Virus record (IMG/VR): IMGVR_UViG_3300036945_000388
DNA length: 38,694 bases
Strand: one strand, 5' to 3'
Origin: a virus
Made by a program: the position numbers and the translations under genes. Below the pieces are notes generated by a model. It was not told the DNA's origin, ran no database searches, and worked only from the letters and a program-made list of their open reading frames with translations. Below are positions 4,281 to 21,521 of this stretch, piece by piece. Every line of letters begins with the position of its first letter. Position 1 is the stretch's first letter.

Positions 4281-4592
4281 TTACACCTTTTCGAGTATAA
4301 GCGTCGATACACCTGTGCCGTCTGTCAGCACAACACGCACGTTGTAGGCCACAGAGCGAATAATAATTTCATCACCATCAGCAGCCAAAGGCACATCAGC
4401 AGTGCGGCAAACAAACTGCGGCGATGGGATTGTGATGTCCATCAGGTCTGTTGCGCCACGGCTGGCCTGTGGAGCATCGAAGATGCCATTCACAGAAACA
4501 GCACTGCCACCTACGGGAGTGTAAGTGGCAGTATCTGCAAAATCATCGACTGTGAAAAAGTCGAGAATGTCATCTGCGCTCTCAACGCCCAT
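4281..4592 (-). CDS. Head-tail joining protein (lambda gpFII-like, 103 aa)
   Basis: Size, position after the capsid gene, and pattern (FADTATYTPVGG..V.VNGIFD.....DITIPSPQFVCRTADV...DGDEIIIRSVAYNV..VLTDGTGVSTLIL) resemble FII-type head-tail joining proteins. Confidence 0.6.
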   Translation of the reverse strand: MGVESADDILDFFTVDDFADTATYTPVGGSAVSVNGIFDAPQASRGATDLMDITIPSPQFVCRTADVPLAADGDEIIIRSVAYNVRVVLTDGTGVSTLILEKV

Positions 4593-16707: not shown

Positions 16708-17460
16708 TTATAGCCTAGATACCATTCGGTTAATTATACGGTTAAAGTGCAGCGGCAGACTGTAAGCGACCTGCTTCTGTCCAACGCCAAAATAATCATA
16801 ACGCTTCTTATATGGCCTTCTTGTCTTGGTATTTACAAGCATTATTTTAATGTCCTTGCCACGGCGCTCTGCAATTCCGATAGGAACGCCCTCGCGCTTC
16901 ATAACAAAGAAGCTGATGTTCTTACGATTCCGCTGCTTGCCCTTGGGCATTGCGCTACGGGCAGTCTCAGACAATGCGCCAACAGCCGCCAGCATTTCAC
17001 TATACCGAGCGCCATTGATGTCACCGCCTGATCCACGGGGATAGTTTCTACCTTGGACAGTGTCTTGTGTTCCAAGCAAAGCCACCCGATCCTGTAATCG
17101 CCTCTCAGACGCCTTACGCGACCTTAGCCCACCAAACACATGCGGCTTGACGATGCTCTCAGGCGAACCAGTGCCACCAAAATATTCAAAGTAAGTTCCA
17201 GCCTTCAATACACCCTGACCAAATCTGGCCCTGTTCGATTGACCCTCACGGCCACCAGGGTAGCTTTTCTTCAAGCCCTTCAGCACATATGGCGATGGAT
17301 TATTAAAGACAGACTTCATCTCCAACTCTTGCCGAGTGTAGAGATCGTCCACGGTATCAGACAAAGCGCCCACAATAGCCTTGCGGATCATATTAGGCGT
17401 TTCAGCAAGGACCTTTAAGCCCCTGTCGAAGTCGCTTGTCTCAACCCGCATTGCTAACAT
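16708..17460 (-). CDS. Hypothetical basic protein, 250 aa from MLAMRVETSDF
   Basis: Start chosen at the TGATG overlap with the upstream gene. The N-terminus faintly resembles HK97 gp10-type neck proteins (weak, by eye). The C-terminus is Arg/Lys-rich. Confidence 0.65.
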   Translation of the reverse strand: MLAMRVETSDFDRGLKVLAETPNMIRKAIVGALSDTVDDLYTRQELEMKSVFNNPSPYVLKGLKKSYPGGREGQSNRARFGQGVLKAGTYFEYFGGTGSPESIVKPHVFGGLRSRKASERRLQDRVALLGTQDTVQGRNYPRGSGGDINGARYSEMLAAVGALSETARSAMPKGKQRNRKNISFFVMKREGVPIGIAERRGKDIKIMLVNTKTRRPYKKRYDYFGVGQKQVAYSLPLHFNRIINRMVSRL

Positions 17461-17648
17461 CAGTCTATGTCCTCGAACTCGCCACACCAATTAAAGGGTG
17501 AAGTCACTGGATTGAAAAACTTGGCCCGACCTTCTGCATCCATGTTTGTGAACACGGGCGGAAATCTTTTGCAGAAACCGTGGCTACCAGAAGGGCTTCC
17601 CTGAAAGAACAAACACTGCCCACAAGACTCATCATTATTCTTACTCAT
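17460..17648 (-). CDS. Small 4-Cys protein, 62 aa from MSKNNDES
   Basis: CGQC...G.C.....PP......WCGEF pattern, shared with 25043..25237. AAGGGA lies 5 nt before ATG 17648. Confidence 0.65.
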   Translation of the reverse strand: MSKNNDESCGQCLFFQGSPSGSHGFCKRFPPVFTNMDAEGRAKFFNPVTSPFNWCGEFEDID

Positions 17649-17725
17649 AACATCCCTTTCCACATACCTAATTCTATATCACCAGAGGTCCAATGACAAG
17701 TGGTCAGGACACCCCGCAGGACAGA

Positions 17726-17894
17726 GTGGACAAGTGGACAACACCTATAGGTGTGTTGTCCTGTCCGTCCACCCCTGCCTACCTTGCCCCTACCTTGTCC
17801 ACCTTCTTGTCCACCCCTACCTAAAAACCGCAGAAAAGCGTCAGTTTAGGTGGACAAGTTCTGTTTTGTCCACCCTTGTCCACCCTTGTCCACC
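17726..17894. repeat. Iteron cluster, 8 perfect TTGTCCAC/GTGGACAA 8-mers (DnaA-box-like): candidate origin of replication
   Basis: Plus-strand copies at 17795, 17807, 17866, 17876 and 17886. Inverted copies at 17726, 17734 and 17850. Degenerate copies at 17757 and 17765. 14-bp perfect palindrome ACACCTATAGGTGT at 17741-17754. The last three copies have exact 10-bp phasing and abut the primase-helicase stop. Confidence 0.75.
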
Positions 17895-17896
17895 CC

Positions 17897-19915
17897 CTAT
17901 TTATACTCACTTCTTGAAATCATCATGGACGAGGCATTTTCAGGGCAAATAACCACCCATCCATGCTCATGTCTGCTCACCATTTCGCTCACAACAAGCG
18001 TCCCAATCAGCCTATTGGTCTGGCTCTCCTGACACATTTTCTTTGCCGCATCTTCATTCTTAGCCAAGCCCTCTTTCATGATATGATCTATCAGGGCAGA
18101 GCGAGACAGGTACGGCATGTCATCCCTGACTTCGCGCCCAGCCTTATGCCAAGCGCCATCAAATATCTTGAAGTTGCTTTTGTGCTTTGCTTCTTTGCGT
18201 GTCTCAGGCGGAGCCTCAGTTTGCATTATAACCGCACTGGACACTTGCTCACCATCTTCATCGAACCAGCCGTTGATCTGTACAAGTTCCAGTACAGCAT
18301 AGACAGGCTTTGCCTCTTCGGCATCCTTGGACTTGCGCTGGACGATCTGGATAGGTCCGTCGCCCTTGGCTGGGACAACACTGATTTCGATTTCGAGAGC
18401 GCCCTTCCATGCTGACGATCCACGCGCACGGTGCTGGGCCTCATCTGACACGCCAGTGTGATGGACAAGGATGATGCTGCAACCGAACTCACGCATAAGC
18501 GCAGCACAGGCATCAATCATTGTTTTGGCATCCTGTGCGCTGTTCTCGTCGCCGGACAGGAACCTGTGCAGGGTATCGACCACAATAACACTGGGCGGAT
18601 GTGGCAGCGCCCTGATGGCCTCGACCACCTTCATGTAGCCTTCAGGCGTGTTCAGATCGCAGCCAGCCTTGGACAGCCACATATTGACGCTGGATACGCC
18701 GTGGTGCTGTTTCCATGCCGAGATACGCGAACGCAGACCGTGATGACCCTCACCAGCCAGATAGACCACCGTGCCGTTCTTAACCCTGTGACCGTTCCAA
18801 TCGGTCAGGCTGGAAGCTATGTGCAGACACCAATCAAGGGCCACGAAGGTCTTGCCTCCGCCTGACGGCCCGTGGATCATGATAAGGGCATCATCCTGTA
18901 TCCAGTTCTTGACCATCCACTTGATAGGGGCTGGCTTAGTGCAGAACTCGTCGGCTGGGATAAGCCAATCCGAAACTGGTGGAATCAGCAGGACGGATAA
19001 GTCGCCCCCTGCTGCCACATAATCGTTCGCATCGCCCTGGAAGGGTGGCATGATGGTCCGCGCACCAAACTTGGCTGATGCTTGGTCAGCATATTTCTGA
19101 CCCGTGTTGGACGCATCATTGTCCGCCACGATGACGATTTCTTGGGTTGGGCCGTATTTGTCCCGCGCCTCACCAGTTACAGGAACAAGGTTCGACGCCG
19201 AATAGGCCACAAGGCATGGGCGACCCGTTACCTGATGGATAGTGGCTGCTGTGGCAAAACCTTCGGCCACATATACAACCCCAGGCTCGTCCATTGTCCC
19301 GACCATCCAAGAGCAGCCGCCTGTCTGTCCGCCAGCATGGTATAACTTGCCACCCTCACGATCTATGTATTGCAGAGAGGATAGTTTGCCGTTGGGACTG
19401 AACAAGGGAACAACCAGCCGTCCGTCGCCTGTGACCCTCGCGCCATTGACGCCAATGCCTTTGCGGGAAAGATACGGGTGATCCGGATGGGCAGCGGTTG
19501 CCTCTGACCAAATCTTCTCGACGGTGTTCGATGCCACCTCCCGCGATTTAGCCAGTTCGATGTCCCGTGCGGCCTTGGCCTCTGACATGCGCCGGACATT
19601 TGCCATCTCTTCGGATGGTGTCAGCTTACGGCCAACGTCTGCCCTCCATGTCATTTCCATGCCAGCCCTCCAGCAGCCGAAGCGGCCAGCGGGAACGCCA
19701 TCACCATAGGCAATATACCAGCCGGACTTATCGTGTCCGCCCTTGCCTTTGGTTCCGGAGTTGAAGCGGTGCATCTTACCATCAAGGACAATGTCCTTGG
19801 GCGGTGTTATGCCGCTGTTCTCTATGGCGTCACGAAGCTGTAGTTCCGGTGGGTCAGCCTTTACCTCTGCTGGCGGCGACCATGAGCCGCCCAAGATGTT
19901 TGTTAGATCAGCCAT
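17897..19915 (-). CDS. Bifunctional DNA primase / replicative helicase (Toprim + RepA/AAA_25-like P-loop), 672 aa
   Basis: Toprim pattern VYVAEGFATAATI...IVIVADNDASNTG...GDANDY. Walker A IHGPSGGGKTF. Walker B VIVVDTLHRF. ILVHHTG motif. Confidence 0.85.
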   Translation of the reverse strand: MADLTNILGGSWSPPAEVKADPPELQLRDAIENSGITPPKDIVLDGKMHRFNSGTKGKGGHDKSGWYIAYGDGVPAGRFGCWRAGMEMTWRADVGRKLTPSEEMANVRRMSEAKAARDIELAKSREVASNTVEKIWSEATAAHPDHPYLSRKGIGVNGARVTGDGRLVVPLFSPNGKLSSLQYIDREGGKLYHAGGQTGGCSWMVGTMDEPGVVYVAEGFATAATIHQVTGRPCLVAYSASNLVPVTGEARDKYGPTQEIVIVADNDASNTGQKYADQASAKFGARTIMPPFQGDANDYVAAGGDLSVLLIPPVSDWLIPADEFCTKPAPIKWMVKNWIQDDALIMIHGPSGGGKTFVALDWCLHIASSLTDWNGHRVKNGTVVYLAGEGHHGLRSRISAWKQHHGVSSVNMWLSKAGCDLNTPEGYMKVVEAIRALPHPPSVIVVDTLHRFLSGDENSAQDAKTMIDACAALMREFGCSIILVHHTGVSDEAQHRARGSSAWKGALEIEISVVPAKGDGPIQIVQRKSKDAEEAKPVYAVLELVQINGWFDEDGEQVSSAVIMQTEAPPETRKEAKHKSNFKIFDGAWHKAGREVRDDMPYLSRSALIDHIMKEGLAKNEDAAKKMCQESQTNRLIGTLVVSEMVSRHEHGWVVICPENASSMMISRSEYK

Positions 19916-20159
19916 TTTCAGCCGCCAAAATCTGTAACGATGTCACGATGCTGCTATGGTCCCTATTCATTATGCGCCCAATCTCAGTGGTTGAAAAGCC
20001 CTTGGCGCGTAGCATTCCTATGCACTCACGCCGTACTGCTACCATTTTCTTAAACCGTCTAGGGCCAAGCATGTCCTCGACGGTGTATCCATATTTATAT
20101 GCTATTTCGCCAATTGCTGCGAGGTTCTTTTCCCGTGGTGTCATTATATATTGCTCCAT
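19908..20159 (-). CDS. Stand-alone DnaA domain IV-like HTH protein (83 aa from MEQYIMTPREK)
   Basis: IGEIAYKYGYTVEDMLGPRRFKKMVAVRRECIGMLRAKGFSTTEIGRIMNRDHSSIVTSL aligns by eye with E. coli DnaA domain IV ([59 protein letters not shown]). Confidence 0.65.
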   Translation of the reverse strand: MEQYIMTPREKNLAAIGEIAYKYGYTVEDMLGPRRFKKMVAVRRECIGMLRAKGFSTTEIGRIMNRDHSSIVTSLQILAAENG

Positions 20160-20166
20160 TTTAAAA

Positions 20167-20343
20167 TTACTCACCTTCACCAATCAGATAACCAGCTAAA
20201 CGATTAAGCGTGTCGATCTTGGGGTTTTCTTCCTTGCCGTCCCTTATGCGGGTAACGGTGTTGACATGCAGACCAGTGCGCTCCGCAACTACCTTGGGCC
20301 TTCTATCTAGCAAGGCCTGTCTAATCCATGCAATTTCGATCAT
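20167..20343 (-). CDS. Cro/XRE-type HTH regulator (58 aa), below the ORF-track cutoff
   Basis: Manual translation: MIEIAWIRQALLDRRPKVVAERTGLHVNTVTRIRDGKEENPKIDTLNRLAGYLIGEGE. GGAG lies 8 nt upstream. First gene of the leftward unit. Confidence 0.7.
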   Translation of the reverse strand: MIEIAWIRQALLDRRPKVVAERTGLHVNTVTRIRDGKEENPKIDTLNRLAGYLIGEGE

Positions 20344-20460
20344 TAGCTATACTCCTTTTTAATGTTATTTTTCTCCTTTACATATCAAAATTTGGCTGTA
20401 AAGACATTTCTACGCACTAACTGGATAGTCCGAATTGTGCTGAAACGAAAGGAGCCTTCA
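20344..20460. promoter_or_regulatory. Divergent early control region (promoters/operators inferred)
   Basis: 117-bp AT-rich gap between divergent operons. 7-bp inverted repeat CTTTACA (20376-20382) / TGTAAAG (20397-20403). RBS AAGGAG lies before ATG 20461. Confidence 0.5.
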
Positions 20461-21138
20461 ATGGCTATTAATCTAAAGAAGACCGGAGGTCTAACCGCCA
20501 ATGGTGTCAAGCTGCTTGTATATGGTCAGGCTGGCGCTGGTAAGACATCTCTTATCCGCACACTGCCGAACCCTGTGGTTCTGTCGGCGGAAGGTGGGCT
20601 GTTGTCCATCCAAGATGCTGACCTTGCCTATATTGAAATTAAGAACATGGAAGATTTGCGCGAGGCGTATGCCTGGGCCAAGGACAGCGAAGAAGCCGCT
20701 GGCTTTGAAAGCGTTGCACTCGACAGCATCAGTGAAGTGGCCGAGGTTGTCCTTCAACATGAACTGCGCACCAACAAGGATGGACGCGCTGCTTATGGCG
20801 AACTTAACACCGTTATGCAGGAACTGATCCGTGCGTTCCGTGATTTGCCAAACAAGCATGTCTACATGAGCGCCAAGCTGGAGAAATCCACCGACGAGAT
20901 GGGCAAGTTGCTTTATAATCCATCAATGCCGGGAAAGTCGTTGACGCAGGGTCTGCCCTACTTCTTCGACGAAGTCTTGGCTCTGCGTGTGGAACGCGAT
21001 GCGGATGGCAATGCCCAACGTGCCATTATGTGCGACAGCGATGGTTTATGGTTGGCTAAGGATCGCTCCGGCAAGTTGGCGTCATGGGAGTCCCCTGACC
21101 TTGGTGAGATCATTCGCAAGATTGGGGGTGTGTCGTGA
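20461..21138 (+). CDS. Sak4-like / AAA_24 RecA-fold ATPase (225 aa from MAINLKK)
   Basis: Walker A VYGQAGAGKTS and Walker B VALDSISE. Typical partner genes follow (DUF669-like, nuclease). AAGGAG RBS. Confidence 0.8.
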   Translation: MAINLKKTGGLTANGVKLLVYGQAGAGKTSLIRTLPNPVVLSAEGGLLSIQDADLAYIEIKNMEDLREAYAWAKDSEEAAGFESVALDSISEVAEVVLQHELRTNKDGRAAYGELNTVMQELIRAFRDLPNKHVYMSAKLEKSTDEMGKLLYNPSMPGKSLTQGLPYFFDEVLALRVERDADGNAQRAIMCDSDGLWLAKDRSGKLASWESPDLGEIIRKIGGVS

Positions 21139-21521
21139 CGCTAACTCCAATTGAACATGAAAAATTAACCTGCCGAGCGTGGAATGTTTTGCAAAACAAT
21201 GATCTGGGAAAATATAATGTTGGCGTAAATTTGGAAGCTATTTCTTCCATGACAGATGACATGTTTTTAGCACTAGAAAATTGTGGCCGCAAAACTCTCA
21301 AAGAAGTTGAAAATTTGTTAGCGAGTTATGGGAAAAAGTTTACCGACGATTTTGTTGAAGCTGATTGGGCCACAGAACTATGGGCCGATGCATTAATGGC
21401 TCATGGAATGTGGGTAAAATCCAAAACTCTTCGCAGAAAAGGACCCAATATAAATGATATTGCGGCAATTAAATTGCTTCGCCTTCGCTTTGAGCAAATG
21501 ATGAACGGAGAAGCGCCATGA
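21135..21521 (+). CDS. RNA polymerase alpha C-terminal-domain-like (HhH) protein, 128 aa, GTG start
   Basis: EKLTCRAWNVLQNNDLGKY...ISSMTDDMFLALENCGRKTLKEVENLLASYG parallels E. coli alpha-CTD [50 protein letters not shown]. GTGA coupling to the upstream gene. Confidence 0.5.
   Translation: MTLTPIEHEKLTCRAWNVLQNNDLGKYNVGVNLEAISSMTDDMFLALENCGRKTLKEVENLLASYGKKFTDDFVEADWATELWADALMAHGMWVKSKTLRRKGPNINDIAAIKLLRLRFEQMMNGEAP

Follow-up and report, generated by a model that had tools for sequence, protein, structure and literature searches.

In the satellite phage P4, a primase, a helicase and a C-terminal origin-binding domain are joined in one polypeptide, gp-alpha, which reads octamers of the sequence TGTTCACC, and replication is autonomous of host DnaA, DnaB and DnaG loading. 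The work on gp-alpha and its ori/crr sites is attributed to Ziegelin et al. in 1993-95, and the structure of the origin-binding domain is said to be entry 1KA8. In the iteron plasmids pSC101, P1, F and RK2 the iterons are bound by a separate Rep protein, host DnaB and DnaG are recruited, and flanking DnaA boxes are present. The fused primase-helicase of P4 is mentioned in the literature (PMC7145576). The Rep and PriRep5 proteins of the staphylococcal pathogenicity islands (SaPIs) have been shown experimentally to be self-loading initiator-helicases, PriRep5 being a primase-helicase fusion; the C-terminal winged helix of Rep reads iterons of 5-6 nt, 6-12 of which lie directly downstream of rep, and the SaPI origin has a more AT-rich centre with opposed iteron orientations on its two sides (PMC9371898). 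Here we describe a predicted iteron-type origin in viral DNA (IMG/VR record IMGVR_UViG_3300036945_000388), the whole 38,694-nt stretch of which is called the window and supplies all coordinates. The element fills the 233-bp gap (17664-17896) that follows the gene of a primase-helicase, and the gene directly upstream encodes a protein of 83 amino acids (aa) related to DnaA. The minus-strand genes within 17,460-20,343 are read as one leftward early operon.

The best overall explanation of this locus, and one that we consider probable, is a self-loading primase-helicase with an iteron origin 3' of its gene, accompanied by an accessory cassette that would read DnaA boxes. The primase-helicase would bind its own class-specific iterons (GGTGGACAA/TTGTCCACC, core GGACA), directly 3' of the gene that encodes it, by means of a C-terminal winged-helix-like domain, and would assemble on both sides of a central spacer, melt the spacer, load itself and prime. 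The resemblance to PriRep5 lies in the fusion of primase and helicase and in iterons just downstream of the gene, in both orientations and with an A+T-richer centre; the SaPI Reps, however, are AAA+ helicases of Gram-positive islands and unrelated in sequence, and the family of the window has further conserved motifs outside the iterons (GGGGCAAGG, TGCGG and a palindrome, CCTWTAGG), with host DnaA boxes beside the iterons of many members. With gp-alpha the window's protein shares the single polypeptide and the proposed C-terminal reader of short repeats. P4 alpha nevertheless has a different primase and a helicase of superfamily 3 (SF3), and its origin does not lie directly 3' of the gene in the same way, whereas the window has a Toprim primase and a RepA/DnaB-like RecA-fold helicase. 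The origin-binding domain of P4 was sought from the C-terminal domain by a profile-to-PDB search and by a fold search, neither of which retrieved it, and P4 was kept as a functional analogue. Since the helicase is RepA/DnaB-like and not of the SF3 or AAA+ kind, the system is an analogue of P4 alpha and SaPI Rep and not a member of either family. Relatives of the origin recall the iteron plasmids in combining class-specific iterons with perfect host DnaA boxes at fixed flanks, but the proposed initiator carries its own helicase and primase, and the origin of the window is without a canonical DnaA box.

The significance of the repeats was assessed with shuffled sequences for the exact 8-mer TTGTCCAC and with a Poisson model for its 5-nt core. 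The gap contains 12 copies of the core, TGTCC/GGACA, where 0.42 would be expected (Poisson P ~5e-14), seven copies pointing one way and five the other, in an array that begins a few nucleotides past the stop codon of the primase-helicase. The 8-mer itself is found eight times in the window, all within 17726-17893, where shuffles gave a mean of 1.12 and a maximum of 5. As described in the initial annotation, five copies are direct (plus strand, at 17795, 17807, 17866, 17876 and 17886) and three inverted (minus strand, at 17726, 17734 and 17850). The last three direct copies form tandem iterons TTGTCCACC (17866-17894, plus strand) in exact 10-bp phase, ending 3 nt before the stop codon at 17897-17899, and this part of the earlier description was likewise confirmed, as were a 14-bp palindrome with degenerate copies nearby. 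The palindrome, ACACCTATAGGTGT, lies at 17741-17754 with inverted iterons on one side (17726-17741) and the degenerate iterons on the other (17757-17772). Between these and the tandem array are a non-iteron motif (gene strand GGTAGGGGCAAGGTAGGC, 17777-17794), two direct iterons (17795-17802 and 17807-17814) and a central spacer (gene strand ...CTGACGCTTTTCTGCGGTTTTTAGG, 17818-17848), the most A+T-rich part of the gap, which we infer to be a candidate site of unwinding or priming. The spacer is conserved between the window and three of the related loci introduced below (L003, L012 and L015), and two others (L042 and L072) have an A-run equivalent. No second repeat cluster was found elsewhere in the window.

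More than 500 relatives of the primase-helicase are present in IMG/VR; the origin layout was read at 80 IMG/VR loci, with tallies taken over 81 loci, and the loci compared are labelled L001-L087, the window serving as the reference for identities. The layout that follows the primase-helicase stop codon is conserved at the 80 loci, although some 14 different iteron sequences occupy it. Tandem repeats are followed by one inverted repeat, an A/T-richer spacer (GACGCTTTTCTGCGGTTTTT in the lineage of the window) and two direct repeats; then come a GGGGCAA(A/G)G motif, two or three overlapping repeats and a palindrome centred on CCT(A/T)TAGG; the series closes with two or three inverted repeats, TGCGG, a promoter and the next gene. 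Iteron classes include GGTGGACAA, GCGGGACAT, GGGGACATG, AGGGTCAA, GGTAAC, GGAACG, CGTATCTT, CCCCCTAG, CGGACCG and CGTACCG, and the iteron-origin character that had been ascribed to the cluster is borne out by this shared anatomy, in which TTGTCCAC is the class-specific iteron of the window. The GGGGCAA(A/G)G motif keeps the same relative position in most classes, and the CCT(A/T)TAGG palindrome with its converging iterons is found in nearly all of them, for example as TCTCCTATAGGAGA in L003, ACACACCTATATAGGTGTGT in phage 1N2-2 and CCCCCCCTTTAGGGGGGG in L042. The three non-iteron motifs, which in the window are at 17777-17794 (GGGGCAA(A/G)G), 17741-17754 (the palindrome) and 17713-17719 (TGCGG), probably serve as contacts for a host factor or for conserved components of the replication apparatus. 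The arrangement recurs in cultured relatives: Salicola phage CGphi29 and Idiomarinaceae phage 1N2-2 have an operon in which a helix-turn-helix (HTH) gene precedes the primase-helicase with no DnaA-like gene between them, and the gaps that follow hold short repeats in both orientations (ATGTCCCC and (A/G)TGTACCG, respectively) with a palindrome of the CCTATAGG type in both. The Alteromonas phages PB15 and XX1924 also encode this primase-helicase.

The primase-helicase of the window (17897-19915, minus strand) is a fusion protein of 672 aa, with a Toprim domain at residues ~213-304 (Pfam Toprim_3, E 2e-13) and a RepA/DnaB-like RecA-fold helicase at ~321-490 (AAA_25, E 3.5e-37). It matches PHROG primase and primase/helicase families, and its nearest solved relative is RepA of RSF1010 (PDB 1g8y, E 4.4e-7), so that the function assigned to this gene at the outset holds. 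The C-terminal ~95 aa (residues ~578-672, encoded at 17900-18184 on the minus strand) form what we propose to be a winged-helix-like iteron-specificity domain. No Pfam, PHROG or PDB sequence match was obtained for it. An AlphaFold2 model, for which the multiple alignment was built from full-length database matches, has a predicted local distance difference test score (pLDDT) of 87-91 over the folded part and the winged-helix-like topology H-E-H-H-H-E-E-H, and weak Foldseek matches (E >= 0.1) include many winged-helix DNA-binding domains, winged helix-turn-helix regulators and the winged helices of ORC and RuvB.

It is the behaviour of this domain across relatives that would tie the protein to the repeats. 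The C-terminal ~95 residues diverge much more than the rest of the primase-helicase, and they do so together with the iterons. For pairs that are 90-100% identical in the rest of the protein, identity in the C-terminal domain averages 92% where the iterons are the same and 57% where they differ. Compared with the window, the proteins of L012, L010 and L009 have identities of 0.99, 0.90 and 0.91 in the rest of the protein and of 0.97, 0.86 and 0.88 in the C-terminal domain, and all three have the same iterons; the corresponding values are 0.98 and 0.68 for L008, where the iterons are partly changed, 0.95 and 0.52 for L003, with iterons GCGGGACAT, and 0.76 and 0.40 for L015, with iterons GGGGACATG. 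When the conserved portion of the primase-helicase is used for a neighbour-joining tree, the iteron classes are scattered over it, which implies that the C-terminal domain and the origin are frequently exchanged between lineages as a module. That the gap would be the origin, and that the C-terminus of the primase-helicase would set its specificity, is a joint claim which we hold, from these comparisons, with good confidence.

A word-indexed search with the C-terminal 102 aa returned 4 proteins. A free-standing protein of 106 aa (P0121), encoded on a 33.6-kb contig, is 84% identical to the C-terminal domain; it may be the product of a truncated gene, or it may act on its own in binding the origin, possibly with a regulatory role.

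The 83-aa protein (19908-20159, minus strand) is a genuine stand-alone DnaA domain IV, as the initial annotation had concluded by eye. Its score against Pfam Bac_DnaA_C (PF08299), the check suggested at the time, is 34.3 bits, above the gathering threshold of 31.5 (E 2.5e-8, profile positions 7-66 of 69), and precomputed PF08299 matches are present for every family member listed; it also matches PHROG 27829, 'DnaA-like replication initiation protein'. A search of the PDB with the single sequence gave no match and a family profile, built from 61 members, was needed; this retrieved the DnaA structures of Aquifex (2hcb/1l8q, E 7e-6), Escherichia coli (1j1v, 9e-5) and Mycobacterium tuberculosis (3pvp, 1e-4). 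The AlphaFold2 model (pLDDT 94.4) has five helices, and its best Foldseek matches are 3pvp, 3r8f, 1j1v and 2hcb, with template modelling (TM) scores of 0.72-0.76 and root-mean-square deviations of 1.8-2.3 A over 71-76 residues. The open reading frame (ORF) overlaps the start of the primase-helicase by 8 nt, and translation from the next in-frame ATG, at 20144, would yield 78 aa, in agreement with the conserved N-terminus of the family, MTPREKNL.

In E. coli DnaA the helix at 434-451 reads TnCACA and R399 reads TTA (PMC5742627). The 83-aa protein has the fold and signature of DnaA domain IV (PF08299; 1J1V, 3PVP, 2HCB) and retains the equivalents of R399 (R35) and of R432-D433-H434-T435-T436 (R66-D67-H68-S69-S70), followed by I71; the RDH(S/T)(S/T)(I/V) segment noted earlier is thus present, together with the arginine of the basic loop. 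It differs from DnaA in having threonine at the equivalents of P423 (T58) and H439 (T73), in being encoded by a phage and mobile between gene neighbourhoods, and in being without domains I-III, that is, without the AAA+, oligomerisation and helicase-loading surfaces. This absence, too, had been recognised from the letters: NCBIfam DnaA models align over their C-terminal ~60-75 residues only (354-414 of 437; 372-434 of 462), far under their cut-offs, and with neither AAA+ domain III nor N-terminal domain I the protein does not qualify as a full-length DnaA. Across the 61 members the equivalents of R399, R407 and R432-D433-H434-T435-T436 are near-invariant, and the position of H439 varies between H, T and V.

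The gene for this protein occupies a slot that runs from the stop codon of the HTH gene to the start codon of the primase-helicase, and the contents of the slot vary. The HTH gene (20167-20343, minus strand), the first of the leftward early operon, encodes a Cro/XRE-type protein of 58 aa (Pfam HTH_26, 25.1 bits; PHROG 18104, 'transcriptional regulator'). This Cro-like protein was considered as a reader of the iterons and rejected, since the proteins of the window and L003 are 91% identical with the same recognition region although their iterons differ. In L010 the slot is empty, the HTH stop codon overlapping the primase-helicase start codon (L010:2499-2503), and in L012 it holds a 202-aa DNA methyltransferase of PHROG 757 (L012:1900-2508); both keep the GGTGGACAA/TTGTCCACC origin of the window, with primase-helicases that are 90% and 99% identical, respectively. 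The cassette fits precisely into the interval from the HTH stop to the primase-helicase ATG. CGphi29 and 1N2-2 have nothing in the slot either, and ~70 relatives with the same origin layout are without the DnaA-like gene.

Conversely, L003/L004, L015 and L016 carry the DnaA-like gene (80%, 78% and 60% identical) beside GCGGGACAT and GGGGACATG iterons. The recognition helices of the small proteins are identical in L003 and L015, which have different iterons; the helix of L009 differs from that of the window, with which L009 shares its iterons; and L015 and L016, whose origins are near-identical and agree in their iterons, encode markedly different small proteins (78% and 60% identical to that of the window). 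All primase-helicase loci with the DnaA-like gene fall in one clade in which L010 and L012 are nested, a pattern consistent with one gain and subsequent loss and replacement. As an optional cassette in a variable slot, the 83-aa gene does not encode the origin-recognition protein, and an accessory status for it, judged from these gene arrangements, appears very likely.

Canonical DnaA boxes (TTWTNCACA) are absent from the gap, and one is found in the window (at 4551) where 3.4 are expected. The iteron of the window matches the E. coli box TTATCCACA at 7 of 9 positions, as first reported, with two mismatches. Other members of the family do have such boxes: in 32 of the 81 related origins, canonical DnaA boxes, almost always perfect TTATCCACA, occupy fixed positions and number two or three. 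The stop codon is followed within ~35 bp by one or two of them, 11-12 bp apart where there are two, and a further box follows ~180-190 bp on, at the far side of the iterons, against a background of 0.07 per 260 bp. The box-bearing origins are among L036-L085 (for example L042:2631-2890 and L063:4511-4770); their boxes accompany iteron classes D, E and F and are thus independent of the iteron sequence. None of the 32 loci has a domain IV gene. Perfect host DnaA boxes beside a phage's own helicase and primase raise the question of what host DnaA contributes, and it is possible, though we would not favour it, that one branch of the replicon recruits host DnaA through these boxes where another carries its own copy of domain IV.

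Several observations weigh against the explanation favoured here. The C-terminal domain gave no significant fold match (best E 0.11), and the P4 origin-binding domain was not among what was retrieved. The automated iteron classes are crude, some GGTAAC/GGAAC pairs sharing C-termini that are 97% identical, and the C-terminal coding region adjoins the origin, so that linkage alone could give co-inheritance of the two. The spacer is only 56-60% A+T. The iteron of the window matches 8 of 9 positions of the actinobacterial DnaA box, TT(G/C)TCCACA (TTGTCCACA) (PMC4285127), and GGACA-core iterons accompany the DnaA-like gene wherever it occurs within the primase-helicase family. This last co-occurrence was rejected as functional evidence: because the loci concerned form a single clade, the association is not independent and may reflect descent or, conceivably, a functional tie.

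Among the alternatives, the one that survives best, though we think it unlikely, retains the primase-helicase as reader of the origin and makes the small protein a lineage-specific modulator that also binds the DnaA-box-like iterons. It might protect the origin against filaments of host DnaA, adjust initiation or copy number, or control a sigma-70-like promoter at the distal edge of the origin. The promoter (TTGTCA-17-TAGAAT, 17671-17699, minus strand; 10/12 consensus positions) is predicted to drive a 67-aa Cys-rich ORF directly downstream, and its sequence is conserved in L008, L010 and L012. The likeness of the iterons to DnaA boxes makes secondary binding by the small protein, or by host DnaA, chemically plausible; the -35 element is 27 bp away from the inverted iterons upstream of it (17726-17741); the gene is kept, within the replicon family, only in the GGACA-iteron clade; and its replacement there by a divergent allele in the same slot (L015 versus L016) suggests selection for having one. 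The perfect host DnaA boxes at fixed positions in 32 of 81 origins provide a precedent for DnaA-type binding. The proposal is difficult to reconcile, however, with the sister phages L010 and L012, which have identical iterons and no such gene, with the iterons of L003 and L015, which do not contain the CACA half read by the DnaA recognition helix, and with a family that is found mostly in unrelated contexts with no similar repeats nearby. According to the explanation that we prefer, the DnaA-box-like iterons of the window are possible secondary sites for the 83-aa protein at an origin that would have no need of it.

The initial annotation had gone further in proposing, as the first of two options, that the 83-aa protein marks the origin and recruits the primase-helicase. 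That its domain IV binds the TTGTCCAC repeats and defines the origin is now very improbable, even though the contact residues are kept in what is a true DnaA domain IV, the iteron matches TTATCCACA at 7 and TTGTCCACA at 8 of 9 positions, the overlap of the gene with the primase-helicase start codon suggests co-expression, and all loci with both genes have the GGACA core. L010 and L012 amount to natural deletions, having the same origin without the gene. The same gene occurs beside different iterons (L003/L004, L015/L016), including some of poor resemblance to DnaA boxes (ATGTCCCGC in L003 and CATGTCCCC in L015), and its recognition helix does not covary with the iterons. CGphi29 and 1N2-2 have the same layout with other iterons and without the gene, ~70 relatives share the layout and are without it, only 8 of the 80 small-protein loci adjoin this primase-helicase family and most members of the small-protein family are not beside any primase-helicase; the GGACA link, coming from a single clade, is not independent support. 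Nor did the idea of an unusual phage replicon built around a DnaA mimic stand, the replicon being common and the gene optional.

The least credible possibility is that the repeats serve as operators or as parts of promoters, for the Cro-like HTH protein or another transcription factor, and that replication starts elsewhere: the gap does have a good promoter at its edge, repeat clusters between phage genes are often operators and GC skew gives no independent support for an origin, but L003, L015 and the window have Cro-like proteins that are near-identical in the recognition region while the iterons differ, and the 12 copies run both ways in an architecture kept across ~14 classes, always anchored to the primase-helicase stop codon, covarying with the C-terminus of that protein and without a second cluster in the window.

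The domain IV protein belongs to a much wider family. At least 212 relatives were found in IMG/VR, and the gene neighbourhoods were read at 80 loci. A word-indexed search returned 124 close relatives of 74-111 aa, nearly all below 100 aa, and an exhaustive hidden Markov model (HMM) search gave at least 301 clusters (50% identity) at E <= 1e-10. The best-scoring 150 representatives are nearly all of 66-300 aa, some with two or three tandem domain IV repeats. Examples of tandem repeats are P0247 (308 aa), P0253 (299 aa), P0313 (434 aa) and P0346 (482 aa), an arrangement that would suit adjacent DnaA boxes. Apart from the eight loci beside the primase-helicase, 34 of the 80 have a DUF3310 gene following, many with a MazG-like gene before, and other neighbours are methyltransferases, a T7-like PolA module and a DUF1376 module. 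Automatic annotations of such proteins exist (PHROG 27829; 'chromosomal replication initiation ATPase DnaA' from the Joint Genome Institute, JGI), and the searchable literature yielded no characterised phage protein that consists of DnaA domain IV alone. With a conserved DNA-reading surface, variable neighbours and variable iterons, the target is expected to be constant, and the canonical DnaA box is the obvious candidate; the near-invariance of the box-reading residues across unrelated neighbourhoods makes binding to canonical boxes the most likely activity.

The surroundings of these genes were searched for such sites. No DnaA-box-like repeat clusters were found near the small-protein gene in its other contexts, where the clusters present are unrelated or simple tandem repeats. 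Near-matches to the DnaA box around small-protein relatives number 169, compared with 127 +/- 7.5 in shuffles. The most recurrent, TTTTCCACA, situated 17 nt before the gene, was discounted as lying inside the conserved 3' coding end of MazG. A perfect TTATCCACA in the early intergenic region, at the early promoter, is a supporting lead: it occurs at ten domain IV loci, mostly in phages of the MazG/DUF3310 type, with its end ~20 nt upstream of the start codon that opens the domain IV operon; its positions include L107:814, L114:1967, L116:1886, L130:2017, L153:1535, L155:1825 and L163:1573, and in L155 it is retained where the flanks diverge. In an unrelated phage, ~1.2 kb downstream of a domain IV gene (L108:6210-6520), there is a further cluster that resembles an origin, with CGGGACGGG/GTCCCG repeats opposed around a more A+T-rich centre.

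As to function, the 83-aa protein would bind DnaA boxes as a monomeric competitor or regulator, its targets being either host oriC and the DnaA regulon or DnaA-box operators on phage DNA. We suggest this role of competition or regulation tentatively, from conservation and gene context, and short of an even chance; competition with host DnaA at the boxes, the second option of the initial annotation, is the one that we favour for the small protein. The extension to the whole domain IV family, as a large group of phage mimics that would occupy DnaA boxes without oligomerising or loading helicase, is a little more doubtful still. The prophage-encoded antagonists YqaH of the Bacillus subtilis skin element and YfdR of E. 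coli are reported to bind or counteract the DnaA protein itself (bioRxiv 10.1101/2020.11.18.388090; PMC4776307). On the account given there, these are small phage-derived proteins aimed at host initiation, the niche proposed here for the 83-aa protein, which differs in copying the DNA-binding domain of DnaA and would compete for DNA sites instead. Neither a DNA-site-competing DnaA mimic of this kind nor a description of the origin family was found in the searchable literature.

The phage of the window recurs in metagenome 3300043036, where the exact 83-aa protein is encoded on five contigs of 20-50 kb, one of them 38.6 kb long. Translated searching (tblastn) of 50,697 phage records with this protein gave nothing at E <= 1e-3 and weak matches only at E <= 1, for example to 'DNA replication initiation' of Pelagibacter phage HTVC100P. 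A search for hosts among species-representative genomes returned just 3 short contigs of metagenome-assembled genomes (Pseudomonadales and Brevundimonas bins), and the E. coli genome, searched with an enterobacterial-looking relative, gave no match. The 67-aa ORF downstream of the origin (17460-17663, minus strand, from the ORF list) has a weak HIPIP match below the cut-off and no other family match; its N-terminus is conserved after the origin in L008, L009, L010 and L012. An Rfam scan of 17300-20500 found nothing meaningful. The GC skew changes sign at ~20-21 kb, where gene orientation switches, and is therefore uninformative about the origin. In the rightward early operon a 128-aa ORF (21135-21521, plus strand) weakly matches the C-terminal domain of RNA polymerase alpha, at 20.0 bits (E 5.6e-4) where the cut-off is 23.8.

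The analysis defines a common replicon of aquatic phages, with its more than 500 relatives in IMG/VR and cultured members in CGphi29, 1N2-2, PB15 and XX1924, whose origin, likely specificity domain and exchangeable iteron classes can be read from the genome itself, with uses in annotation, in phage-derived vectors and in questions of incompatibility between phages. It also corrects an attractive link, the DnaA-like gene being cargo and not the initiator. What would remain is a well-defined modular origin family and a large family of DnaA-domain copies. If the mimic reading of those copies is true, they would switch off chromosomal initiation in the host or rewire the regulon of DnaA, and would also, in certain phages, gate phage DnaA-box promoters or DnaA-box-like origins; domain IV proteins that compete with host DnaA would then represent a new phage route to interfere with the control of host replication.

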